From Candidatus Niyogibacteria bacterium (GTDB lineage: Bacteria; Patescibacteriota; Minisyncoccia; HO2-45-28): a stretch of DNA of 64,000 nucleotides. Both the position numbers and the translations under genes were made by a program. This document shows, in pieces, positions 1,536 through 64,000 of this stretch. The notes under the pieces are model-generated. The model worked only from the letters and a program-made list of their open reading frames with translations. It did no database searches and was not told the DNA's origin. The stretch lies in the NCBI GenBank assembly GCA_016432485.1, contig CP066691.1, positions 452,709 to 516,708 of the forward strand, given 5' to 3'. Position 1 is the stretch's first letter; each line of letters opens with the position of its first letter.

Positions 1536-4217
1536 TCAAATTATTCCAAAAAAGAACTTCTTGATATTCGCGGCGTCTCTTGAAAGCCACCGAGCATTCA
1601 TCCGTATGTGCTCAAGCGACTGTTCAATGGTGCGTTTGGCCGACGGCACGGGATGAGAAGCAAAAAATTCTTCTATTTCACGGGCCTTGCCTTCGGAAAC
1701 AAAGTCGTTGATAAGGCCGCCGATTATGCTTTGAAACATAAAAATTCCGCCGTCCGAATAGCGCCTACTTAACTCCGCAAAATTATTCTTCAGAAATTCC
1801 CACGCCCGATCGCGAGCGTACGCGTTTGCGCCGACGCTTCCGCTGATGAAAAAGACGTCTTGAGGCCTCACTTCATCCGAGAGCATAAATTCAAGGACTG
1901 ATTCAATCAGAGCTTGGGACCTGAATTTTCCAAGCGCTCTTAAAATTCTGGTCTTTTCTTCCGAAAGGCCTGTCGCGCGGTAAAGGTCAAGCAGGGCATG
2001 GTATTCCGCGTCGCTTCCATGGTCGGCCACAATCGCGTATACCGCTTCCTTCAAGTCGGGACTGATAAAACCGGATTTGAATTGCCTATACGCCTCAAAA
2101 ACAGTCGCGGGGTCTTTAGCTAAATTTGCAAAACCCCTTAAAATACGGGAGCGCAGAAGTTTATCGGTGTGGGTTTCGTTATCTTTCTGTTTCCATCCGA
2201 CATGCTCACTGATATCTTTCATCAATAGCCGCGAAAAATCGACCAACCCTCCTGAAAAATCAGTACTACAGAGCAAATTATCAAGCGAAGCCAAAATGCT
2301 TAAAATTTCCTGCCAGACGGCGTAATTTCTTTCTCCCCTGTAATACGGAAGCAACGAAAGAAGTTCCTCGGCTGAGACGCGTCCGGAGCGCGCGTTATAA
2401 AAAAGGTCGCTCAAAACTCCGAAACGATCTATTGGCGGAAGGTCGCCATTTGATAAAGGGACGCGCAATTTATGCAGAAACTCGGGCTCGTAATGAACGC
2501 GGCAAAAAGCCATTTGACCGGTGTTGATTTTCAACCATGTGTTGCCGGCGCTGAAAAGCGACTGATAGTCGGCTTCACTGCTCGGCATAGTTACGCGCAG
2601 TTCTCCCAAACCGCCGAGCTCAATGCCGAGCGGAATGGTCCAACGTTTTCCCCTCTCTTCGGAATCCAGAGTTTCGCCGCTTGAAAGAAACCTTTCTTGC
2701 CCCAAAGACACAAAGCCGCCGTCAATCCTCCTGACAGAAACCGAGGGATAACCCGCTTGTTTTGTCCAGCCGTCCATAAAAGATTTCACCGATTTGCCTG
2801 AAACTTCTTCAAAAACTTCGTAAAGTTCATCGGTTGAAGCATTTTTATAAGCAAAACGAATCAAGTAGGCCTTAAGACACTTTCTGAAAACCTCTTCGCC
2901 AAGATATTCAACCAGCATTCTTATGACGCAAGCGCCTTTTGAATAACTTATGGCGTCAAATATCTCATTTATTTCAGCGGGGTCGTTAACTTCAACTTCA
3001 ATCGGGTGAGTGCTTTTCAGGCCGTCTTTGGAAAGAGCGTTCGCGTATTCCCCGGCGACGAATTGCGTCTGAATGTCCCATTCTGGAAACAAATAATCGG
3101 TGCATTTCGGCTCAAGAAAGCTCGCGAACCCCTCGTTAAGCCACAAATCGTTCCACCATTTCATTGTCACAAGGTCTCCAAACCACATGTGCGTGTTTTC
3201 GTGAATGACGACTTCGGCTACGCGCTGTTTGGCTGAAGCAGCGGAATTTTCCGGGTCGTAAAGAAGCGTAGTTTCTCTGTAAGTCACAAGCCCCCAGTTC
3301 TCCATGGCTCCCGAGGCAAAATCGGGAACAGCAACCAAATCAAGTTTTGGCAAGGGATACGGCACGCCAAGATATTCTTCAAAAAATTCAATGCTCTTTT
3401 TGCAAGTATCAAGCGCGAACCGGCCCTGCTCAACTTTTCCGGGCGTCGTCCAGACCCTGATGGGTTTCCCGGGAATAACTATTTTTGATTTTTGACCATT
3501 ACCGCAACATTCGCCCTCGCAACTTTCGGCCTCTAGTTCAAGATCTTTGGTCCTGGTTTCGATTGATTCAAATTCTCCAACCGCAAAAGCCAGAGCGTAA
3601 GTTGACATCGGCGGAGTTTTTTCAAACTGGATAACTTTAAAGGGCCAAAAATCGGGGCATCTCTGAACCGGCATATTGGACAAAACCTGCAGATGGCGCG
3701 GCACAATAAAAGCAATTCTGAAAGTCGCTTTTATCGCCGGCTCGTCCCAGCACGGGAAAGCCCTGCGGGCATCGGTTGCTTCAAATTGAGTACAAGCCAT
3801 CCATCTTTTTTCACCGTTCACTTCATAACTTGAACGATAAAAACCGCGCATTTTGTCGTTCAAAACTCCGCTAAAATTGATGGTGAGCGCGTATCTGCCT
3901 TTTTGGAAAACCCTATCAAATTTTAAAGTAACGGTCTCTGCCTCCTTATTAAATTCCGTACCCTGCAATCTGGGGATGAATCTGTCGCGAGCAATGACTT
4001 TCACGTTATATATTGAAAGGTCTACGGCGTGCAGGACGATTTCCGAGGTTTCTTCCAAAACTTCAATCTCTATCAACTCACTGCCATCAAAAGTGAATTT
4101 TTTAAGATTGGGAGTAAATGTCAAGTAATACTCATCGGGTCTTACATTTTTAGGAAGACGAACGCCGGGTCTTACAGCTGACGCTTCCGGACACACGATC
4201 CTGCCTCCTTTTTTCAA
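1536..4217 (-). CDS. pepN: aminopeptidase N, M1 family zinc metallopeptidase
   Basis: GAMEN motif 'SGAMENWGLV' and 'HENTHMWFGDLVT...WLNEGFASF' (HEXXH-X18-E). Confidence 0.85.
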   Translation of the reverse strand: MKKGGRIVCPEASAVRPGVRLPKNVRPDEYYLTFTPNLKKFTFDGSELIEIEVLEETSEIVLHAVDLSIYNVKVIARDRFIPRLQGTEFNKEAETVTLKFDRVFQKGRYALTINFSGVLNDKMRGFYRSSYEVNGEKRWMACTQFEATDARRAFPCWDEPAIKATFRIAFIVPRHLQVLSNMPVQRCPDFWPFKVIQFEKTPPMSTYALAFAVGEFESIETRTKDLELEAESCEGECCGNGQKSKIVIPGKPIRVWTTPGKVEQGRFALDTCKKSIEFFEEYLGVPYPLPKLDLVAVPDFASGAMENWGLVTYRETTLLYDPENSAASAKQRVAEVVIHENTHMWFGDLVTMKWWNDLWLNEGFASFLEPKCTDYLFPEWDIQTQFVAGEYANALSKDGLKSTHPIEVEVNDPAEINEIFDAISYSKGACVIRMLVEYLGEEVFRKCLKAYLIRFAYKNASTDELYEVFEEVSGKSVKSFMDGWTKQAGYPSVSVRRIDGGFVSLGQERFLSSGETLDSEERGKRWTIPLGIELGGLGELRVTMPSSEADYQSLFSAGNTWLKINTGQMAFCRVHYEPEFLHKLRVPLSNGDLPPIDRFGVLSDLFYNARSGRVSAEELLSLLPYYRGERNYAVWQEILSILASLDNLLCSTDFSGGLVDFSRLLMKDISEHVGWKQKDNETHTDKLLRSRILRGFANLAKDPATVFEAYRQFKSGFISPDLKEAVYAIVADHGSDAEYHALLDLYRATGLSEEKTRILRALGKFRSQALIESVLEFMLSDEVRPQDVFFISGSVGANAYARDRAWEFLKNNFAELSRRYSDGGIFMFQSIIGGLINDFVSEGKAREIEEFFASHPVPSAKRTIEQSLEHIRMNARWLSRDAANIKKFFFGII

Positions 4218-5945: not shown

Positions 5946-6149
5946 TTATGCCGCACTATCTTTTTTCTTTTTATCCTCGTCATCATTTCCTTGATCATTG
6001 TTTTTTTGTTGATCAAGAAAAGACCCAAAAATAAGCGCGCAGATGCCTGTTCCGACCACAACCCAAAGAACGGTTGACAAAGACAAATTAAACATCACGG
6101 ACAATACCACAAACGTTACTAACCAAGAACCCAATCCTGTCACCACCAC
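5946..6149 (-). CDS. small 2-TM membrane protein (paralogous arrangement to 4876..5118), GTG start with AAGGAGA SD
   Basis: hydrophobic N-terminus, acidic K/D-rich tail; same 34-bp promoter element upstream. Confidence 0.35.
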   Translation of the reverse strand: MVVTGLGSWLVTFVVLSVMFNLSLSTVLWVVVGTGICALIFGSFLDQQKNNDQGNDDEDKKKKDSAA

Positions 6150-6200
6150 TCAACTCTCCTTTTATTCAAAAACTCTCCTTGCATCATACATTCTTTCATA

Positions 6201-6234
6201 TAAAATGCAATAGTTGGCAGAAAAACCAACCAAA
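6201..6234 (-). promoter_or_regulatory. 34-bp conserved element (copy 2), overlaps annotated TTG start of mfd
   Basis: identical to 5150-5183. Confidence 0.4.
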
Positions 6235-8160
6235 CAACTTAATACACTTTTGATCGCAGGGCTTGCCCCATATTTTTTGGAAAAGCCCGTTTTGTGGTGG
6301 GAAGAAAATGAGGAGGAAATAATAAAAAAGCGCGGTCTAAGTCCGACTTGGACCAGAAACACGGTTTTGGTGGAAACGGGACAAAAAATAAAGCAGAGCG
6401 AATTTTTACGCCGAATTTCGGAGTTGGGATATGAAAGGGTTTTTGAAACGATACTCCCCGGGACTTACAAAACGCTTGGCTCAACGATTGTTATCTTTCC
6501 AATCAATAAAAAAATCCCTTGGGGCGTGGAATTCTCGGGCAATATCGTAGAGGCGATTGAAAAACACGAAACAATCGCGAAAGGCGGTCTGACACTAAAG
6601 CCGCAAAAAAATAAAGAATTGAGTATTGCTTCTGGCGATTATGTCGTCCATATAGACCACGGAATCGGAATTTTCCAGGGCCTGGAAGAAAAAAACGGCG
6701 AAAATTATTTTAAAATTGAGTACGCTTCTCCCGCGCACGGAGCCGACCCCGACGCGCTTTTCGTCCCGATTTCGGAAAAAAAACGCCTTGAGCCGTATTA
6801 CGGCCTTGAGCGTCCGCGGTTAAACAGGTTGGGCAGCCAATTCTGGACCAGAACCAAAAAGAAGTCGCGCGAAGAAATAATCGCCTTCGCCCAAGAACTC
6901 ATAAAAATTTATAAAAATCGCGTCATTCAAAAACGTCCGCCCTACCTGCCTGACTCGTTTGAAAAAATTGTCTGGGATTCATTCAGGCACGAACTTACTC
7001 CGAGCCAGGAAAACGCCCTTGAAGAAATTTTAAGCAATATGGCTAGTCCCGAACCTATGGATAGAATCTTAACGGGAGATGTCGGCTTTGGGAAAACCGA
7101 ACTGGCGCTGCGCGCCGCGCTTCGCGCGGCACTAAACAGCAGACAAACGGCGATCCTCGCGCCAACCACCGTGCTTGCCGACCAGCATCTTTCGGTCTTC
7201 AAAGAACGTCTTAAAAATCTGCCGATAAAAATCGGGGGCTTAACCCGCTTATCACCCGAAAAAGAAAATAAAAAAACGCTGGAAAATCTGGCCGAAGGCG
7301 AAACGGATATCGTTATCGGCACGCATCGCTTGTTTTCAAAAGACGTTAAATTCAAAAATCTGGGATTGGTGATAATAGACGAAGAACAACGCTTTGGGGT
7401 AAGACACAAAGAACATTTCAAAAAACTTCATCCGGCAACCGATATCCTTTCGCTTTCAGCAACTCCCATCCCGCGCACACTCACTTTCTTTTTGGCCGGA
7501 GTACGGCCGGCAAGCCAAATCAAAGAGGCGCCACGCGGTCGCAAAGCGCCTCTCACCAAAGTTTTACCTTTTTCCAAAAAATTTGTAAAGGAAGCTCTGA
7601 AAGCCGAGTTAAAACGCGGGGGACAGGTTTATTATGTCGCCAACCGCATCAAAAACATTCCCAAAATTGTTGAAATGCTGGAAAAACTTATTCCGAAATC
7701 CAAAATCGGCTCAATTCACGCGAGATTGTCCGAAAAAAATATAATTGAAACGATGCGCGATTTTCGCGAGAAAAAAATAGAGATTCTTGTTTCAACCACC
7801 ATTATTGAAAATGGCCTGGATATTTCTTCGGTAAACACTTTAATTGTTGAAAACGCGGCGCTTCTCGGACTTTCGCAAGCGCATCAGTTAAGAGGCAGAA
7901 TCGGGCGAGGCGATACGCAAGCAATCGCTTATTTCTTGTATAATCCAAAAAACCTCATGCCTAAGGCCGAAAAGCGCCTGAACAATCTTCTTAACTTTCA
8001 GGAGCTTGGCTCCGGGCTTGAACTCGCAAAACGCGATTTGGAAATCAGGGGCGCGGGCAACATTTTGGGCCGCGAACAATCGGGTATAGCCAACCGCATC
8101 GGCTGGAATTTATATTTTCAGTTTATGAACGAAGCGACTGAAAATCTTTCTCTATTTTAG
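6214..8160 (+). CDS. mfd: transcription-repair coupling factor Mfd, short form lacking N-terminal UvrB-homology domains (start codon uncertain)
   Basis: CarD/TRCF RNAP-interacting domain 'GDYVVHIDHGIGIFQGL', helicase motifs 'GDVGFGKTE', 'DEEQRFGV', 'LSATPIPRTL'. Confidence 0.7.
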   Translation: MAEKPTKQLNTLLIAGLAPYFLEKPVLWWEENEEEIIKKRGLSPTWTRNTVLVETGQKIKQSEFLRRISELGYERVFETILPGTYKTLGSTIVIFPINKKIPWGVEFSGNIVEAIEKHETIAKGGLTLKPQKNKELSIASGDYVVHIDHGIGIFQGLEEKNGENYFKIEYASPAHGADPDALFVPISEKKRLEPYYGLERPRLNRLGSQFWTRTKKKSREEIIAFAQELIKIYKNRVIQKRPPYLPDSFEKIVWDSFRHELTPSQENALEEILSNMASPEPMDRILTGDVGFGKTELALRAALRAALNSRQTAILAPTTVLADQHLSVFKERLKNLPIKIGGLTRLSPEKENKKTLENLAEGETDIVIGTHRLFSKDVKFKNLGLVIIDEEQRFGVRHKEHFKKLHPATDILSLSATPIPRTLTFFLAGVRPASQIKEAPRGRKAPLTKVLPFSKKFVKEALKAELKRGGQVYYVANRIKNIPKIVEMLEKLIPKSKIGSIHARLSEKNIIETMRDFREKKIEILVSTTIIENGLDISSVNTLIVENAALLGLSQAHQLRGRIGRGDTQAIAYFLYNPKNLMPKAEKRLNNLLNFQELGSGLELAKRDLEIRGAGNILGREQSGIANRIGWNLYFQFMNEATENLSLF

Positions 8161-8188
8161 AAGCCGAAAAAAAATATATAATAAAAAT

Positions 8189-8791
8189 ATGCTGATGAAA
8201 TTATTCGGCTCATTTACACTATTAATCTTTTTTATAATTTTTGGGCCGGTTAACGCGCAAGCGGCGGGATTTGGTATATCGAAATACGGAGAAGCCGGCT
8301 ATGGCTACGGCACAACTACCGGAGAGACTTCTACCGTCCGGATGACCAGTACATCAGGAACGGCCGGCGCCACGACTTCGGTTATGGCCACCACTTCTGA
8401 AATGACCCTTGCCACAACTTCTGAAATGGCCACTGCCACAACTTCTGAAATAACCCTTGCCACAACTTCTGAAATGGCCACTGCCACAACTTCGGTTATG
8501 GCCACCACTTCTGAAATAAGCTCGCCCTCAATTAAACCCGCGGCCGCCCCAGCGCGCATAAAAGATAAAAAAATTTCACCTAAAAACAAAACAACTTCGG
8601 CGCCGGAGCCGACAATAGCTTTAATTTCTACGGAAGAAGAATATAGCACCTCAACAAAAGCCGTTCTGAAATCTCAAATGCCTATTAAAACATTGGTAGT
8701 CGGCATAATCACCAATAGTCTGAAAATAGCGCGGCGCGTGATAAAATATAAACTGTGGCAAGCCGGTCAATTTTTATTTTCAATATTTTAA
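8189..8791 (+). CDS. secreted Thr/Ser-rich tandem-repeat protein (mucin-like)
   Basis: signal peptide; protein repeats ATTSEMTLATTSEMATATTSEITLATTSEMATATTSVMATTSEI mirrored by 18/36-bp DNA tandem repeats at ~8385-8525. Confidence 0.5.
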   Translation: MLMKLFGSFTLLIFFIIFGPVNAQAAGFGISKYGEAGYGYGTTTGETSTVRMTSTSGTAGATTSVMATTSEMTLATTSEMATATTSEITLATTSEMATATTSVMATTSEISSPSIKPAAAPARIKDKKISPKNKTTSAPEPTIALISTEEEYSTSTKAVLKSQMPIKTLVVGIITNSLKIARRVIKYKLWQAGQFLFSIF

Positions 8792-50412: not shown

Positions 50413-51246
50413 GTGGAAATGCTCAAAAGCAATGAATTTCCAAACGGACAAAAGGAGCATCTTACCTATTACAAGGCGCTGTTTGGTTATATCGTCATCG
50501 GGACCATTTTTATTTTTCTTGTAAGCGTCGGCATCGCGCAAACACTTCTTGCCTGGAACACCTCGGTATTTGTCAGCACCATGCTAATGTTCGCGGTAAT
50601 GGTTTTTTATTTCAGAAAAACCTTGAAAAGATCGGGGTTTATGGGTCTCGAAAAAGACGCTTTGGACTTGGTAAGAAAAAAGTTGGCGGAGACGGAAACG
50701 GAAAAACTGCCCGATTGCCATGAACTTATTTTTGAAACCGACGCTTTTTTTGAAAGATATTCCGCGACGGAATTTAACGGCACTTCTGTCGTCGACTATT
50801 TCAGGGACTTAGGAAAAAGAATCAAGGCGGTCGGCGCGCTTGCGGGCAAACACAAAAAAGAACCCGTGCTCACAGATGAATTAAAATTCTGTTTCTATGC
50901 CAATATGGAACGGCTTATCAAACCAACGGTCAATGGCGCTAGAAAACTTCTTCTTTTCGGTTTTCTGGGAACGGTCACGGGAATTCTGTTAATCGGTGTG
51001 GGCATGCAATTCGGGGAAAGCGCGCAACAGGCTCAGCTCATAGCGAAAGAACTGATCGGCGGACTTGGGGTGGCGGCAATAACAACCATTTTAGGCCTTG
51101 TCGGAAACTTGTTCTTGAGTTCTATTTACGAGCAGCATGAAGACATAAGAGATCGGATTCTCGCGGAACTTGCGCGCCTGACAAGTATCTACGGATTGGA
51201 TCTGTGCTCGCCTCCCGAACCAGAGGAGGAAATGGCGAATGGATAA
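50413..51246 (+). CDS. MotA/TolQ/ExbB-family proton channel-like protein
   Basis: C-terminal 'FGFLGTVTGILLIGVGMQF...LGVAAITTILGLVGNLF' matches family signature helices. Confidence 0.5.
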   Translation: MEMLKSNEFPNGQKEHLTYYKALFGYIVIGTIFIFLVSVGIAQTLLAWNTSVFVSTMLMFAVMVFYFRKTLKRSGFMGLEKDALDLVRKKLAETETEKLPDCHELIFETDAFFERYSATEFNGTSVVDYFRDLGKRIKAVGALAGKHKKEPVLTDELKFCFYANMERLIKPTVNGARKLLLFGFLGTVTGILLIGVGMQFGESAQQAQLIAKELIGGLGVAAITTILGLVGNLFLSSIYEQHEDIRDRILAELARLTSIYGLDLCSPPEPEEEMANG

Positions 51247-51895
51247 ATGGAGAATTTTTTCAAGAAGAGAATCCGACCATGCTATCGTCCAGGGAGACCT
51301 GACGCTTCTTATAGCCATTATTCCTTTTATGCTTGTGTTTTTGTTTCTAATTCACCTAAACGACGCCTCAAGCAAAGACCAAGACAAAAATCCCTTTGAA
51401 GTCACGGTTGAATGGGACGGAAAATCGCCGGTTGATATTGATACCTGGACTTGGTGCACCAACCCCTCGACGGAACTTTGGGAAATTGTCAGTTACCAAA
51501 ACAGAAAGGGCAAATTTCTTCTTCTGGACCAGGACGACAGAGGTTACAAAGACGAAAGTCCTCTTGACGACAAAAATAAAGAGAAAGTAAAATCGCTAGG
51601 TAACCGTCTGCCGGCTGCCCTTTGCGGGGTAAATCTGCATGTCTACGGCACAAACGGCGGAACTCTGCCCATTGAAGTAACTGTGTCTGCAGTCCTTTTC
51701 AAGGGGCACGAGACCGGAAAACAAATTGTGCTTTTGGACCAGAAAAAATTTACCCTAAGCAGAGTTGGAGAAGAAATTACGACAACCAGTTTTGAAATTG
51801 ACACGGAAGGCAAATTAATGGTAGGAAGTAATAAGACGACAATCCAGATGCGTTGCGCCAGTTCTTCTGGTCGCAACTGTACTCCTGCCTGGTGA
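51239..51895 (+). CDS. ExbD/TolR/MotB-like single-TM partner protein with extended periplasmic domain
   Basis: N-term 'RRESDHAIVQGDLTLLIAIIPFMLVFLFLI' resembles ExbD/TolR TM segment; 4-bp overlap with preceding gene. Confidence 0.4.
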   Translation: MDKWRIFSRRESDHAIVQGDLTLLIAIIPFMLVFLFLIHLNDASSKDQDKNPFEVTVEWDGKSPVDIDTWTWCTNPSTELWEIVSYQNRKGKFLLLDQDDRGYKDESPLDDKNKEKVKSLGNRLPAALCGVNLHVYGTNGGTLPIEVTVSAVLFKGHETGKQIVLLDQKKFTLSRVGEEITTTSFEIDTEGKLMVGSNKTTIQMRCASSSGRNCTPAW

Positions 51896-51905
51896 GGGAC
51901 GGAAA

Positions 51906-52628
51906 ATGGACGCACCGCTCTTCGGCGTGCTAAAAACTACTTTCAGAATTGTTTTTTATTCAGAGCCATGGTTTGAATGGTTGGTGCCTATTTTGACGAC
52001 TCTTGTAATGTTGTACTGGCTCTTTATAATTCTGCACCGGACACATGCTTCAAGAAATTTTAAAGTTTCCATGGCGATCTTATCTCTGCCGATCTCTTTC
52101 ATGCTGTTAAACATACCTAATTTCTATAAATATATGAACGCGGGCGCGCCAGACAAAAACTGCCCGGAAATCAACATCAATCCGTTAACCAAAGAAATTG
52201 AACCGATTAAATACGATTATTTAGCACAGCATGTGGTGCCGGGTCCGGTAGAATCGGGATTCGCCGACTTGTTTCTTAAACAGCACGAAATCTTTGGGCA
52301 AAGTTTGAACGTCCAAAACTCTCATGTTTGCCGTCTCCCTTACGATGAGCGAACAAGAATGCTCCTGCAAAATTTGCAAGAAGCAAAAAGACTTCAGGGG
52401 GAGGCGGCTAAAAGAGCCGGCGTGCCTGTCGAATCGGCCTCGGAATTCGGAAACATTCGGATTACTCTGCCGGGTTCTGCAGAAAGCAGAGCGAAAATGG
52501 ATTCTGCTTTACGCAAAAAGGGCGACAAAGAACAAAAGGGTGAACGAGATCGTGATGAAAGTTTCGGTCGCGCCGAATTCAAGGCGCCAAAGACAAATCT
52601 TGTCCCAAAGACGGAAACGGGCCGGTGA
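51906..52628 (+). CDS. membrane protein, hypothetical (third gene of MotA/ExbD-like operon)
   Basis: 3 hydrophobic helices then charged C-terminal tail. Confidence 0.35.
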   Translation: MDAPLFGVLKTTFRIVFYSEPWFEWLVPILTTLVMLYWLFIILHRTHASRNFKVSMAILSLPISFMLLNIPNFYKYMNAGAPDKNCPEININPLTKEIEPIKYDYLAQHVVPGPVESGFADLFLKQHEIFGQSLNVQNSHVCRLPYDERTRMLLQNLQEAKRLQGEAAKRAGVPVESASEFGNIRITLPGSAESRAKMDSALRKKGDKEQKGERDRDESFGRAEFKAPKTNLVPKTETGR

Positions 52629-56258: not shown

Positions 56259-57068
56259 TTAATTTATTTCTTTCTTTTTATCTTCTTTTATTTTCTGGTA
56301 CGCCCTTTCAAAATCTTCATGGGCTTTACGACGCTCCTTGGAGCCAGGTTCAGAAAGTCGCAAAAGCTGACGCCTCAATCCGTGCCATGCCTGTTCTTTC
56401 AAATATTTTTCGCCTTTCTCGGCTAACGCTTTTTCGTCTTCCGGCAATTCTTCCGAAGAAATTCCGCGGGACTTTACTTCTTTATCCGCGCTTGCGTCTG
56501 CGCCTTTCGTTTGCTCTTTTTCTTTGGCGCGCCGTCCCATCACCACATCCTTCTCTTCCACAAAAGGGTAAATCTCGGTGGGGTCAATGCCATTATGACG
56601 ATAATAATCTGCCTCCAATTCATACGCGCGCGCGATAAACGGCGCTATCTCAAACATTTCCTTCTTCGCCCCACCCTCTTCAATCATAAATTTCATAGTT
56701 AAGGCAAACCATTGCCGAAAAATCTCCGGCTGTTCAAACGGCGTCTCCTTTTCAGGTTCTGCGGATGCTGTTAAATTTTCAACTTTTTGCTGAAAATCGC
56801 GAAATCGGTTGTTAAATTCCTCGTCGTTATCCGATTCTCTCAAGACAGGGTGATTAAGCTCTCCATCAGCGGCGGTAAAACCAACTACAATCATTTCTTG
56901 AAAGGTTTTCTCCCTTAAATTCTTTTCAAGTTTCTCATCGCTCCAAAAACGTTCAGCTTCTTTAGGGTCTTCGTGGAGTTTACGTAAATATTCACGTCTC
57001 AACGGCGGAATTATGGATTCATCCCACGGAACGGGTTTTTCAAATCGCGGTTCTTGTTCAATTCCCAT
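56259..57068 (-). CDS. highly charged (E/K-rich) hypothetical protein inserted between rpsG and fusA
   Basis: 269-aa ORF in conserved str operon position where no gene is expected; no motif. Confidence 0.45.
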   Translation of the reverse strand: MGIEQEPRFEKPVPWDESIIPPLRREYLRKLHEDPKEAERFWSDEKLEKNLREKTFQEMIVVGFTAADGELNHPVLRESDNDEEFNNRFRDFQQKVENLTASAEPEKETPFEQPEIFRQWFALTMKFMIEEGGAKKEMFEIAPFIARAYELEADYYRHNGIDPTEIYPFVEEKDVVMGRRAKEKEQTKGADASADKEVKSRGISSEELPEDEKALAEKGEKYLKEQAWHGLRRQLLRLSEPGSKERRKAHEDFERAYQKIKEDKKKEIN

Positions 57069-59216: not shown

Positions 59217-59290
59217 CGGGACGTAGTATAGTGGTAGTACGTATGCATGGGGTGCATATAGTGGGAGTTCGATTCTCCCCGTCCCGACCA
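59217..59290 (+). tRNA. tRNA-Pro (anticodon GGG), CCA encoded
   Basis: manual cloverleaf: acceptor cgggacg/cgtcccg, D-stem gtat/gtac, anticodon stem tatgc/gcata, loop atGGGgt, T-arm gggag-ttcgatt-ctccc. Confidence 0.8.
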
Positions 59291-60697: not shown

Positions 60698-60730
60698 CAA
60701 ACAGGCGGCTCAAAGAGCCGCCTGTTTTTT
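60698..60730 (+). terminator. Rho-independent terminator after gdh
   Basis: aaacaggcggctc-aaa-gagccgcctgtttttt. Confidence 0.75.
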
Positions 60731-60736
60731 ATTTTC

Positions 60737-60756
60737 GTGTCCGCCCGGAAGGAATC
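60737..60756. repeat. 20-bp direct repeat of the tRNA-Lys 3' end (distal att-like copy)
   Basis: gtgtccgcccggaaggaatc identical to 61330-61349. Confidence 0.7.
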
Positions 60757-60785
60757 TCCCGCAACTCTAGCCGTCTTCCAATGCA

Positions 60786-60818
60786 GAAAAAAGAGGCGGT
60801 CTCTGTAGAAACCGCCTC
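60786..60818 (-). terminator. Rho-independent terminator for cassette gene 60843..61151
   Basis: gaggcggt-ctctgtagaa-accgcctc preceded by aaaaaaa (T-run on minus). Confidence 0.65.
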
Positions 60819-60842
60819 CCTATGTTGTGTGGAGCACAATCA

Positions 60843-61151
60843 TCACCGCACCCGAACGGTGCCGCCCTTGAAGATGACGCCCGCGCAGACGTACACCTCC
60901 GCGGGCTTGCCCGCTGGATTGGTTGCCTTCGCGGTAAACCGCGCTGCGTCCTTCTTGTCGCATCCCCGAAAGCCGACCGCAAACCAGGCATGGTCCACAA
61001 TCTGGATATTGCTGTATCCCTGTGCTTGGAGTGTACGGACAGCGACGTCCTGGCTCGCGAAGACACCCCTGCCGACTCCAATGAAGAGAGCGACAAGGAT
61101 GAGAATAACGTAGAGCACGATCGGCCCATCGTTACTGCTGTGCCCGCTCAT
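60843..61151 (-). CDS. small N-terminally membrane-anchored protein encoded on a GC-rich cassette next to tRNA-Lys
   Basis: GGAGGG SD 7 nt upstream of ATG; TM 'IVLYVILILVALFIGVG'; terminator downstream. Confidence 0.45.
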   Translation of the reverse strand: MSGHSSNDGPIVLYVILILVALFIGVGRGVFASQDVAVRTLQAQGYSNIQIVDHAWFAVGFRGCDKKDAARFTAKATNPAGKPAEVYVCAGVIFKGGTVRVR

Positions 61152-61332
61152 TGTTTCTCCCTCCTCAAAGAGCTGTTCTCTGCCACAGGGTTGCGGCAGA
61201 GATTATTGGTTTTTAGGGTTTCCAATAATAACCGAAATATAGCAGTAATCACCGTGAGGTCAAGACAAACAAAAAACCAGCATCCCTGCTGTTTTCGTAG
61301 CTAAAATCTTTAGCTTGCGCTTTTCTAAAGTG

Positions 61333-61405
61333 TCCGCCCGGAAGGAATCGAACCTTCAACCTTATCCTTAAGAGGGATCTGCTCTGCCAATTGAGCTACG
61401 GGCGG
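61333..61405 (-). tRNA. tRNA-Lys (anticodon CTT), CCA not encoded
   Basis: manual cloverleaf: acceptor ccgcccg/cgggcgg, D-arm gctc-aattggca-gagc, anticodon loop ctCTTaa, T-arm gaagg-ttcgatt-ccttc. Confidence 0.75.
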
Positions 61406-61455
61406 AATCTAATATATAATAAGTAGAGAAAACTTTGATTTCAAGGAGGAAAGAA

Positions 61456-61785
61456 ATGATTAAACTGACTGAATCCGCGATAAAAGAAATCAAAAGATTA
61501 AAAGAAGAAAAAAATCTGCAAAATCATGTTCTTAGAATAGGTGTACAGGGAGGAGGCTGTTCCGGTCTTTCCTATACTTTGGGCTTTGACACGGAAATTA
61601 AAGACAAAGACAAAGTTTTTGAAATTGAAGGAATCAAGGTGGTTGTTGACCAAAAAAGCTTGCTTTATATAGATGGAACAACCCTGACATACGAACAGTC
61701 CATGATGGGCGGCGGTTTCCGGTTTGAAAACCCCAACGCCAGCCGCACTTGCGGCTGCGGCGAATCATTCTCTCCAAAAAATTAA
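61456..61785 (+). CDS. iscA: iron-sulfur cluster insertion protein (HesB/IscA/ErpA family)
   Basis: 'GGGCSGLSY', C-terminal 'CGCGESF'; AAGGAGG SD. Confidence 0.8.
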   Translation: MIKLTESAIKEIKRLKEEKNLQNHVLRIGVQGGGCSGLSYTLGFDTEIKDKDKVFEIEGIKVVVDQKSLLYIDGTTLTYEQSMMGGGFRFENPNASRTCGCGESFSPKN

Positions 61786-61877
61786 ACTTCCGGAGCCCAA
61801 TTTTGGGCTCTTTTTCTTTTGCGTTATGTGGATAACTAACGCTTTTACACTTTCGATTTATTTTCTATAATATCACT

Positions 61878-63380
61878 ATGATAACAAAAAGGCAAAAACA
61901 AACCCTCGACTTTATAACCGACTATCAGGAGCAGAAAGGATATGCCCCCTCTCTTGACGAGATACGCAAGAAATTAAAACTCTCGTCAGTTTCAACAGCC
62001 CATTTTCATGTTTCTAAACTTCGCGATTTGGGACTTTTATCCAAAGAAGAGAACAAACCGCGCTCTATTGAAGCGTTCGGTCGCGAAACAATGGTAAAAA
62101 TTCCACTTTTAGGGGCTATTGCTGCCGGTCAACCAATAGAGGCAATACAGAACAAAGAAATGATTGCCATTCCTAAAAGTAAGATCCCTTCTTCGTCAGA
62201 AGTTTACGCTCTCCGCGTGGTCGGGAGCAGTATGATTGACGAAAACATAAACGATGGCGATGTGGTTTTGGTGCGCCAGCAGGAAGTCGCGGAAAATGGC
62301 CAGCGGGTAGTCGCTTTGATAGACAATTACGAAGCGACGCTAAAAAAATTTTATAAAGAGCGCGGACATATCCGCCTACAACCTGCGAACAAAACTATGG
62401 AGCCGCTTATTTTTAGAAATGGGCGAGATGTTTCAATTCAAGGAATTGTGCTTGATGTTATTCGTGATGGGGGTTTTATGTCTCCAGTAGAAATTTATCC
62501 AGACGCAAAACTTCTTAATCGAGAAAGAAAAGTCAAAAATAGAGAAGCGAAAGAAAGGGCGCGGGGTGGTACAAAATTTCAAAAAGAAGCTTTTGCGGTT
62601 GCGCAAGCAAACGGCATTGAGAAGTTTACAGACAAAATTATATGTGGCGACAGCGGAGAAGTTTTGCGTAAAATCCCAACTGGTTCGATTGATATCATCA
62701 TTACATCCCCACCGTATAATTTTGGCCTAGAATATAAAGACGATAAGAAAAATGATGCGATTCATTGGGACGAGTATTTTAAGAAGATAGATACAATTTG
62801 GAAAGAGTGTGCGCGCGTTCTAAAACCCGGAGGACGGCTCTGCCTTAACGTGCAGCCGTTGTTTTCAGATTACATTCCGACACATCATTTGATGTCAAAA
62901 CAACTACTTAATCATGGGCTGATCTGGAAGGGAGAAATTTTGTGGGAGAAAAATAACTATAACTGCAAGTATACAGCATGGGGCAGTTGGAAAAGCCCCA
63001 GTATGCCATATCTAAAATACACGTGGGAATTTGTTGAAGTTTTCTCGAAAGATACACACAAAAAGACTGGCGACTCATCAAAAGCCGATATAACTGGTGA
63101 TGAATTCAAAAAATGGGTTTATGCAAAATGGTCCATCGCTCCCGAACGAAACATGAAAGAATACGATCATCCTGCAATGTTTCCAAAAGAGTTAGCAACG
63201 CGACTAATGAAACTTTTTAGCTATCAAGACGATATTGTGCTTGATCCGTTCAACGGCGCGGGGACAACCACGCTTTGCGCCGCAGAAACAGGCAGAAAAT
63301 ATATCGGAATAGATATCTCACCAAAATACTGCAAAATCTCCGAGAAACGAATAAAGGAAATCCCCGCGAAGTTATTTTAG
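61878..63380 (+). CDS. fusion protein: full-length LexA repressor (wHTH + S24 autopeptidase) joined to a beta-class DNA amino-methyltransferase (N4-C/N6-A)
   Basis: LexA: 'TKRQKQTLDFITDY...LDEIRKKL', 'LLGAIAAGQPIEA', 'LRVVGSSMIDENINDGDVVLV', 'ATLKKFYKE'; MTase: motif IV 'IIITSPPYN' preceding motif I 'VLDPFNGAGTT'. Confidence 0.7.
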   Translation: MITKRQKQTLDFITDYQEQKGYAPSLDEIRKKLKLSSVSTAHFHVSKLRDLGLLSKEENKPRSIEAFGRETMVKIPLLGAIAAGQPIEAIQNKEMIAIPKSKIPSSSEVYALRVVGSSMIDENINDGDVVLVRQQEVAENGQRVVALIDNYEATLKKFYKERGHIRLQPANKTMEPLIFRNGRDVSIQGIVLDVIRDGGFMSPVEIYPDAKLLNRERKVKNREAKERARGGTKFQKEAFAVAQANGIEKFTDKIICGDSGEVLRKIPTGSIDIIITSPPYNFGLEYKDDKKNDAIHWDEYFKKIDTIWKECARVLKPGGRLCLNVQPLFSDYIPTHHLMSKQLLNHGLIWKGEILWEKNNYNCKYTAWGSWKSPSMPYLKYTWEFVEVFSKDTHKKTGDSSKADITGDEFKKWVYAKWSIAPERNMKEYDHPAMFPKELATRLMKLFSYQDDIVLDPFNGAGTTTLCAAETGRKYIGIDISPKYCKISEKRIKEIPAKLF

Positions 63381-63988
63381 AGACGCTCTTTTAATGCGCG
63401 CTCAAAATATTTGATTGCGCGGTCTAATCTTTCGGGACGCAGTGGTTTATAAAACTGCTTTTTGTGTATTTCCCCTTTGATGTTTCGCTCTCCGTCCAGC
63501 ATAGTGATGATCTCAATGTCGAGATTTGGAAAATGATACTCAAGAACTTTGACCGATGGGCTTCCGCTCGGATGATCAACGGCAACGGAGTAATCGCCAC
63601 CAAGCATACTTTCTAATTGGAAAAGGCAGAATTTAAGTTTTGGAAAATGCTTTTTTAGCAAAAAGGCATCAACTAATATGCGTTTATACATCGCGACCTC
63701 TGCATACGCCTTACACTCAACTGAAAGCACAAATTCATCATCAATATAGACCTGTTTATCTTGGGACAGTTTATAAACATTTCCCCTTCCATCACTGATA
63801 GGATATTTTGTTTTGTTGATTTTGATGCGCAAAGGTTTGCCGCCGATATTTTTCCATGCGAGTAAAACCATCTCCTCGGCCATCGTCTCAACGAGCGTGC
63901 CCTTCAGCGAACGTAAAGTGCCGCCGGCACGAATGCGCCACATTTTTCGTATTGTTCTATTGTAGAATTTTATAAATCTGTTGAACAT
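63377..63988 (-). CDS. putative type II restriction endonuclease (PD-(D/E)xK-like), convergent partner of the methyltransferase
   Basis: 'YIDDEFVLSVECK' PD-x(n)-E-x-K-like motif; 4-bp tail-to-tail overlap with MTase gene; ORF starts 12 nt from the window edge (63988 of 64000), so the true start may lie further upstream. Confidence 0.4.
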   Translation of the reverse strand: MFNRFIKFYNRTIRKMWRIRAGGTLRSLKGTLVETMAEEMVLLAWKNIGGKPLRIKINKTKYPISDGRGNVYKLSQDKQVYIDDEFVLSVECKAYAEVAMYKRILVDAFLLKKHFPKLKFCLFQLESMLGGDYSVAVDHPSGSPSVKVLEYHFPNLDIEIITMLDGERNIKGEIHKKQFYKPLRPERLDRAIKYFERALKERL

Positions 63989-64000
63989 GTTGCTTAAAAA

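Follow-up and report, generated by a model that had tools for sequence, protein, structure and literature searches.

The 64,000-nt stretch considered here (the window; contig CP066691.1 of Candidatus Niyogibacteria bacterium, positions 452,709 to 516,708) carries near its right-hand end a gene whose product joins a LexA repressor to a DNA methyltransferase, and this fusion gene converges on a second gene predicted to encode a restriction endonuclease (Table 1). The fusion occupies one 500-codon frame with no stop and no shift. At 500 aa the protein is unlike a stand-alone LexA of ~200 aa, and residues 198-500 are methyltransferase. Pfam and NCBIfam profile searches, which supplied the domain calls on the window proteins, place LexA_DNA_bind (PF01726, residues 2-62, E = 2e-13), Peptidase_S24 (PF00717, residues 76-191, E = 9e-30), and N6_N4_Mtase (PF01555, residues 271-490, E = 1e-39) on the same polypeptide.

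The LexA half scores as a lexA equivalog in NCBIfam (TIGR00498, 182.8 bits over residues 2-197 against a cut-off of 110.95). The first 200 residues match T. maritima LexA (3K2Z) end to end (E = 4e-35), and E. coli LexA likewise aligns end to end from residue 2 (E ~1e-23), so that Ala83-Gly84, Ser118, and Lys156 of the window protein correspond to A84-G85, S119, and K156 of E. coli LexA. When 5.8 billion proteins were searched with the full fusion, 68 homologues that are 455 aa or longer and 49-91% identical came back from independent ENA, JGI, NCBI, and Logan assemblies; together with the window protein they form an alignment of 69 proteins. The Ala-Gly, Ser, and Lys residues are kept in 67 of these, namely all 67 full-length LexA-methyltransferase fusions; the two proteins without Ala-Gly, P0088 and P0101, are nuclease-methyltransferase fusions that have no S24 domain. 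The same residues are intact in 41 of 41 long fusion representatives (50%-identity clusters) whose methyltransferases are unrelated. By these comparisons the window LexA is complete and predicted to be cleavage-competent.

In the methyltransferase half, motif IV (SPPY, residues 277-280) precedes motif I (DPFNGAGTT, with FxGxG at residues 458-462), which is the beta-class permutation, and both SPPY and FxGxG are invariant in the alignment. The nearest solved methyltransferase is 2ZIE (E = 7e-32), followed by the DNA cytosine-N4 methyltransferases 8S9N and 8S9M (E ~1e-23). Because its closest solved relatives include two cytosine-N4 methyltransferases and it has SPPY in the beta-class order, the window enzyme is probably an N4-cytosine (m4C) methyltransferase. 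A full-length AlphaFold2 (AF2) model has a mean predicted local distance difference test score (pLDDT) of 75.7, falling below 50 over residues 198-220, and stand-alone methyltransferases of the family (~305 aa) start just ahead of the sequence YPDAKLL. A preliminary description of this DNA had taken the basic ~40-aa segment after LexA for a linker; it is instead an N-terminal arm that the methyltransferase family conserves, found in the free ~305-aa enzymes too. The remaining structural points of that account of the protein hold: the frame is single and clean with a junction that recurs elsewhere, the LexA is complete with its self-cleavage machinery by Pfam, TIGR00498, and alignment to solved LexA proteins, the beta-class methyltransferase fused to it is complete, and the profile searches that it proposed recovered all three domains.

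The convergent 203-aa open reading frame (ORF) has no match in Pfam, NCBIfam, or a profile search of PDB sequences, so its identity comes from structure prediction and fold search. An AlphaFold model built from an alignment of 34 diverse family members reaches a pLDDT of 96.3 and matches Type II PD-(D/E)xK enzymes, while D77, E91, and K93 are invariant in that alignment and form a D...ExK arrangement. Among 116 homologues, some are named 'restriction endonuclease' (Kingella, Neisseriaceae, Zixibacteria). The assignment of the ORF as a PD-(D/E)xK nuclease, already made in the preliminary description, is thereby supported, with activity predicted; of the 'PD...ECK' motif on which it was based the ECK part is correct and the PD part is not, the actual motif being QD...ECK. 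The same description had cast the nuclease as the cognate restriction enzyme, and the comparative data agree. Members of this nuclease family adjoin the same methyltransferase family in five loci, and in the metagenomic proteins P0088 and P0101 (527 aa) the nuclease family sits at the N-terminus of the same methyltransferase family in a single chain; given this adjacency and these natural restriction-modification (R-M) fusions, the two window proteins are predicted to be cognate partners.

The stop codons of the nuclease and methyltransferase genes overlap by 4 bp (TTAG), and no terminator lies between the two convergent genes. A 4-bp stop-stop overlap in a convergent layout also occurs in unrelated methyltransferase-nuclease pairs (L013, L016, L017, L019, L021, L031, L037, L039, and L083); this recurrence points to selection that favours 3' overlap, or else to extreme compaction of the genome. 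Only 12 nt of the window remain 5' of the nuclease start, and any C gene of this cassette would lie past position 64000; the region 5' of the nuclease gene was viewed in relatives. In four of them (L006, L007, L023, and L117) a gene of ~73 aa with an XRE/HTH_3 helix-turn-helix (HTH), resembling the controller (C) proteins of R-M systems, abuts the nuclease start. In L001 the C-like gene is reduced to a 3'-end remnant (..DYFLK and the stop codon).

More than 60 independent assemblies, drawn from four sources, contain the in-frame fusion, and the three domains share a single frame in 66 of the 68 homologues. When one genome per species was scanned, the fusion turned up in ~45 species of Patescibacteria, including Jorgensen-, Zambryski-, Ryan-, Azam-, Levy-, Lipton-, Terry-, Harrison-, Uhr-, Yanofsky-, Nealson-, and Portnoybacteria and Paceibacterota; the nearest species-level relative is a Candidatus Jorgensenbacteria genome (95% identity). 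Outside this lineage, LexA is missing from the same methyltransferase, which is found in Planctomycetes, Anaerolineae, Ignavibacteria, and phages. The search of related genomes that the preliminary description called for thus found the same fusion many times over: the description was right about the fusion and underestimated its scope, for the fusion belongs to a lineage-wide modular design. Its further statement that the arrangement was not previously described stands within the limits of a full-text literature search. The searchable full text, which did not cover the most relevant paper, that of Sanchez-Osuna et al. 2017 on Patescibacteria LexA (pmid 28618189), yielded no account of LexA-methyltransferase fusions or lexA-restriction operons, and database names for such proteins are just 'transcriptional repressor LexA' or 'methylase'.

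The two halves of the fusion appear to have separate histories. LexA parts are 76-94% identical across loci whose methyltransferase parts share only 23-37% identity, and in L001 and L004 the window's methyltransferase (96% and 79% identical, respectively) is joined to LexA parts of 71% and 46% identity. Such patterns show apparent exchange of modules, that is, mosaic evolution of the LexA and methyltransferase parts. An exhaustive HMMER search of 1.84 billion cluster representatives with the LexA part gave, among the best 50 matches, 35 long proteins (378-841 aa, LexA at residues 1-197), and a DNA methyltransferase domain was present in all 20 of the long proteins scanned. The methyltransferase classes found on LexA are N6_N4 (beta), N6_Mtase/Eco57I/TaqI_C (gamma), D12 (alpha), and C5. 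The genes adjoining 42 fusion genes include nucleases of at least seven families (His-Me/Endonuclease VII, HNH, MutH-like, BglII, TaqI, MwoI/SfiI-like, the present PD-(D/E)xK family, and another family of ~330 aa that has no assignment), mostly convergent and many with the 4-bp stop overlap. On the 522.9-kb contig Ga0315277_10000002 (L004), two LexA-methyltransferase systems with different operators lie 4.4 kb apart in a defence island. The second of these (L004 15208-17940) pairs a 616-aa fusion with a MwoI_N/SfiI-like nuclease, and its operator, ACCCGACC-ATTT-GGTCGGGT, is a palindrome set between the -35 and -10 elements; the island also holds AbiE, NERD, and GIY-YIG genes.

LexA also exists as free proteins of 206-219 aa, with 73-91% identity to the window LexA part. 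Among seven stand-alone lexA genes examined, four (L086, L088, L090, and L115; lexA at 6001-6640 or 3001-3636) are followed on the same strand, 6-20 bp past lexA, by a DpnI-family gene, and in L118 an NmeDI_C-type gene lies downstream within the same distance. Two or three conserved small ORFs (55-80 aa) come after these restriction genes. One of the remaining two lexA genes is followed by an unannotated ORF running into the contig end, and the other (P0277, L117) is a frameshift-broken fusion after which the methyltransferase, the convergent ORF, and the C-like HTH gene follow. In the sample examined, nearly every member of this LexA clade is tied to restriction genes.

Comparison across loci shows that the 60 nt 5' of the fusion's start codon are conserved more strongly than the proteins. 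They contain a sigma-70-type promoter that is near base-for-base the same in ~30 loci. The ATG lies 6 nt past the -10 TATAAT and the interval 61866-61880 contains no Shine-Dalgarno sequence, so the fusion mRNA is probably leaderless. Another promoter class among the relatives has a leader of ~35 nt. A candidate LexA box extends over the spacer of the promoter and half-way into the -10 element, and a position weight matrix (PWM) scan of the window scores it at 36.9 bits against 16.8 for the next-best site. The operator repeat unit changes in step with the recognition helix of LexA, giving three classes: TTTC(G/T)AT / TTTCTAT with STAHFHVSKLRDLG, two copies of TTTCGGT with ..IHQH(I/V).AL.., and TTTCTAC / GTTCTAT with ST(I/V)HFHISKLK. 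Their general form is (T/G)TTC-N7-(T/G)TTC, and GTTC-N7-GTTC direct-repeat LexA boxes are known in Alphaproteobacteria (PMC8565304). This comparative evidence supports autoregulation of the fusion through a direct-repeat operator, with binding predicted. A direct-repeat box of matching form was reportedly described for Patescibacteria LexA by Sanchez-Osuna and colleagues in 2017.

Beyond the cassette's own promoter, the PWM scan found no strong LexA box in the 64-kb window, and a loose-pattern search for further boxes that might mark SOS regulon members returned noise only in 976 kb of related loci. No LexA box lies 5' of the C-like and nuclease genes in the nearest relatives, L006 and L007. 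An apparent triple repeat in L023 was discarded as a LexA box, for it falls inside a coding region.

A second conserved element is the TGTGGATAA box, which reads as the DnaA-box consensus TTATCCACA on the opposite strand; it is set 8 nt ahead of the -35 element and marks the exact left edge of between-locus homology. At least 43 of 48 exact copies in the 976 kb of related loci sit at the promoters of lexA or lexA-methyltransferase genes; the box is seen in the window, in L004 (17829-17845), and in ~45 related loci. It is retained in promoters with differing LexA boxes, including a palindromic one. Membership of the LexA box was rejected, since TGTGGATAA does not vary when the LexA box and recognition helix do, and it lies at varying distances from the box. 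A role as a cassette-flanking repeat is not supported, as there is no systematic second copy at the far end. Candidate roles are control by DnaA, binding of a second regulator, and a recombination site.

The reading favoured here, at a probability of roughly 55%, is that the methyltransferase represses its own synthesis and that RecA-stimulated cleavage of LexA releases it, providing the R-M system with built-in restriction alleviation. LexA-methyltransferase dimers would occupy the direct-repeat box over the spacer and -10 element of their own promoter; because the fusion would bind there, the methyltransferase would be self-limiting, capping its own synthesis as the comparative evidence suggests. 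Autorepression by methyltransferases with an N-terminal HTH is established, and unbalanced Type II restriction induces SOS (PMC3874152). DNA damage, including double-strand breaks made by the system's own nuclease at unmethylated sites, would generate RecA filaments, which would stimulate self-cleavage at Ala83-Gly84. Cleavage would split the winged HTH from the S24-methyltransferase portion and derepress the promoter, and free, intact S24-methyltransferase would build up. Stronger methyltransferase transcription would also collide head-on with the overlapping convergent nuclease gene, which would be under the separate control of a C-protein-like HTH gene, as in the closest relatives. On balance, methylation would rise and restriction fall while DNA is damaged and being repaired, sparing a small genome from autoimmunity. 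We infer the coupling to SOS, and it is strengthened by the invariance of the cleavage residues in 41 of 41 clusters and by the autoregulatory LexA box.

Several points weigh against this reading. What becomes of the methyltransferase fragment after cleavage is the chief uncertainty: Neher and colleagues reportedly found in 2003 that cleaved E. coli LexA fragments are degraded, so cleavage could lower the methyltransferase level, and if the fragment is degraded the logic could invert to that of a suicide switch. Conservation of the cleavage residues might come from recombination with stand-alone lexA copies. S24-less variants on the same methyltransferase also exist: P0037, P0059, P0066, and similar proteins (375-417 aa) carry the LexA winged HTH (residues 1-63) directly on the methyltransferase arm, so DNA binding and autorepression alone can suffice. 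Such variants fit an alternative in which LexA is a borrowed DNA-binding and dimerisation module that acts as a constitutive autorepressor, with self-cleavage having no role in R-M and no link to SOS. The occurrence of the methyltransferase family with no regulator at all in phages and in bacteria outside the candidate phyla radiation (CPR) points in the same direction, as does the established status of N-terminal-HTH autorepression (PMC3874152). A module kept for dimerisation, however, would be free to lose its cleavage residues, and their invariance in 67 fusions and 41 divergent clusters leaves this alternative unlikely, if the most credible of those weighed here.

Degradation of the fragment is central to another alternative, a damage-triggered suicide or abortive-infection switch in which cleavage uncovers degradation signals: with the S24-methyltransferase fragment gone, methylation would fail and the stable nuclease would kill the cell that is damaged or infected. 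Once LexA is cleaved in E. coli, both of its fragments are substrates for proteases. DpnI-type nucleases, moreover, share transcripts with stand-alone lexA genes and would be induced by damage, and R-M systems act like toxin-antitoxin pairs with a labile antitoxin function (PMC3874152). Yet cleavage would also derepress the fusion gene, since the box overlaps the -10 element, and thereby replenish the methyltransferase; existing methylation lasts for generations, and convergent read-through would decrease rather than increase nuclease expression. We regard a suicide switch as rather improbable. Slightly less probable again is that the fusion serves as the cell's general SOS repressor with the methyltransferase as a passenger, R-M cassettes inserting at or recombining with the 3' end of lexA, perhaps as a form of addiction since lexA is hard to lose, and any regulation of the methyltransferase being incidental. 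The equivalog-level score, the 73-91% identity to stand-alone Patescibacteria LexA, and the resemblance of the box to known LexA boxes (PMC8565304) would all suit a general repressor. Two fusions with different operators 4.4 kb apart on one contig would not, nor would a genomic position that differs even between 95%-identical relatives or the lack of another strong box in the window or the 976 kb of loci, and fusion to all methyltransferase classes, always at the N-terminus, argues for selection. A role as general SOS repressor does not exclude built-in restriction alleviation; the two are compatible. That the single ORF is an artefact, whether of a frameshift, an overlooked stop, or chimeric assembly, is a negligible prospect: the frame is clean, and the in-frame junction recurs in more than 60 independent assemblies and ~45 species-level genomes. 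Nothing in the window favours an artefact. Elsewhere, the long-read contig of P0277 (L117) has the reverse fault, with a fusion split into fragments.

A broader proposal is more tentative than restriction alleviation at this locus. The LexA switch may have been captured in Patescibacteria as a portable control head for restriction, a promoter-operator-LexA module recombined onto every methyltransferase class and also placed before DpnI-type methyl-directed nucleases. On this proposal the 'SOS repressor' of these bacteria would be largely or mainly a damage-gated R-M regulator with a classical SOS regulon as a secondary role, and the DnaA-box-like site would tie the cassettes to replication status.

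The surroundings of the cassette are housekeeping genes (FtsK, EF-G, glutamate dehydrogenase, an IscA-type gene, and two tRNAs), and the terminator-like hairpin behind the IscA-type gene forms its left limit. The cassette has a G+C content of 0.40-0.43 against 0.44-0.55 around it. The housekeeping setting, the lower G+C, and the varying position among relatives all fit a mobile Type II R-M cassette of a Jorgensenbacteria-like Patescibacteria genome. A phage origin was considered and set aside: 22 of 23 viral-contig matches cover the methyltransferase part only, so the cassette is not mainly phage-borne, and one match is a full-length fusion (42% identical). Upstream of the IscA-type gene, a G+C-rich stretch (60700-61330, 0.54-0.55) holds overlapping ORFs in several frames, among them a plausible 102-aa membrane protein (60843-61151, minus strand). 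A structured RNA in this 60.7-61.3 kb stretch was rejected, as Rfam finds only two tRNAs in the window: tRNA-Lys (61332-61405, minus strand) beside the stretch and tRNA-Pro (59217-59290) ~1.4 kb further upstream. Elsewhere, four consecutive-looking ORFs of 218-277 aa with no Pfam match (50413-52628 and 56262-57068) sit among FtsK, S41 peptidase, and EF-G genes.

Table 1. Features of the lexA-methyltransferase cassette and its left flank, in window coordinates unless a related locus is named.
Feature	Position	Strand	Basis or detail
IscA-type gene	61435-61785		Pfam, PF01521 Fe-S_biosyn
Terminator-like hairpin and T-run of the upstream Fe-S (IscA-type) gene	61792..61811	+	8-bp stem GGAGCCCA/TGGGCTCT
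TGTGGATAA box	61827..61835	+	sole exact copy in the 64-kb window
Sigma-70-type promoter (TTTACA, 16-nt spacer, TATAAT)	61844..61871	+	11/12 consensus matches, best in region
Candidate LexA box, TTTCGAT-TTAT-TTTCTAT (TTTC-N7-TTTC, 11-bp period)	61851..61868	+	exact match unique in window
lexA-methyltransferase fusion gene, 500 aa	61878..63380	+	ORF, Pfam, NCBIfam, homologues
LexA winged-HTH DNA-binding domain, residues 2-62, recognition helix SVSTAHFHVSKLRDLG	61881..62063	+	Pfam, alignment, AF2 model
Peptidase S24 catalytic/dimerisation domain, residues 76-191	62103..62450	+	Pfam, NCBIfam, alignments
Ala83-Gly84 self-cleavage site (predicted)	62124..62129	+	aligned to E. coli A84-G85
Ser118 codon	62229-62231	+	LexA S24 domain
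Lys156 codon	62343-62345	+	LexA S24 domain
Fusion junction, short flexible linker, ~residues 198-207	62469..62498	+	AF2 pLDDT; start of stand-alone methyltransferases
Basic N-terminal arm of the methyltransferase family (YPDAKLLNRERKVKNR..RGGTK)	62499..62687	+	family conservation
Beta-class amino-methyltransferase domain, residues 271-490	62688..63347	+	Pfam
Motif IV, SPPY	62706-62717	+	alignment
Motif I, DPFNGAGTT	63243-63269	+	alignment
Restriction endonuclease gene (predicted), 203 aa, convergent with the fusion gene	63377..63988	-	family alignment, structure model
Predicted catalytic D77...E91-C-K93 of the nuclease	63710-63760	-	family alignment
C-protein-like HTH gene, L006 (73 aa)	8113-8334		relative
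C-protein-like HTH gene, L007	~3380-3600		relative
C-protein-like HTH gene, L023	8501-8866		relative
C-protein-like HTH gene, L117	5619-5840		relative

The closest functional precedents are the autorepressing methyltransferases with an N-terminal HTH, M.SsoII, M.Ecl18kI, M.EcoRII, M.MspI, and M.ScrFIA (reviewed in PMC3874152). As in SsoII/EcoRII-type systems, the window protein holds regulator and methyltransferase in one polypeptide, and its operator overlaps the methyltransferase promoter in a predicted arrangement that would limit the enzyme's own level. It differs in that the regulator is not a simple HTH but a complete LexA by sequence, with winged HTH, S24 autoprotease, cleavage site, and dyad, so that the repressor could in principle be irreversibly removed by a DNA-damage signal. 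The gene order differs too: whereas the nuclease and methyltransferase genes of SsoII/EcoRII-type systems are divergent, here they converge with 4-bp overlapping stops and share no regulatory region. The window protein resembles LexA itself (TIGR00498; 1JHH, 3K2Z) in its full-length homology, cleavage site, Ser/Lys dyad, and predicted autoregulated promoter, and its direct-repeat box resembles the GTTC-N7-GTTC box of LexA in Alphaproteobacteria and Acidobacteria. Unlike LexA, it carries a 300-aa C-terminal DNA methyltransferase and belongs to an apparently mobile R-M cassette; more than one such copy can occur per genome, each with its own operator. The small HTH gene abutting the nuclease start in four relatives recalls the C-protein R-M systems of the PvuII, BamHI, and Esp1396I type; unlike in those systems, the methyltransferase is proposed to answer to its own LexA module and not to C.

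Damage-responsive control of restriction and of other defence systems has precedents that differ in mechanism. Type I restriction alleviation in E. coli follows DNA damage through ClpXP-dependent loss of HsdR, and the outcome proposed here is similar, restriction being damped when damage and repair make unmodified sites. In E. coli the nuclease is the target, at the post-translational level; in the proposed Type II case, control would be transcriptional and proteolytic and exerted through the methyltransferase. The regulators CapH and CapP of the cyclic oligonucleotide-based antiphage signalling system (CBASS) respond to DNA damage, and the fusion is proposed to tie an immune cassette to DNA damage in a like manner, through a protease-controlled repressor. 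CapH and CapP are encoded by separate regulator genes and belong to other protein families, whereas the regulator here is fused to the effector enzyme. What appears new in the window, judged from sequence, is the form of the methyltransferase-borne autoregulator, a complete LexA; autoregulation by HTH-methyltransferases was known already.

How Type II R-M systems spare their host when repair or recombination makes unmethylated sites is an old open question, and to our knowledge dedicated restriction alleviation is known for Type I systems only. If the favoured reading is true, a methyltransferase fused to a damage sensor and repressor would be a direct answer to this problem of Type II self-restriction, and R-M, the main defence of CRISPR-poor CPR bacteria, would join the DNA-damage-gated immune systems. 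The compact promoter-operator-LexA head could also serve as a damage-responsive control part. For annotation, many 'LexA' proteins of Patescibacteria are really R-M methyltransferases, and among the stand-alone copies checked, most are the first gene of a restriction operon. The recurrence of the design across the lineage suggests that these bacteria have wired DNA damage directly to self-protection against their own restriction enzymes.

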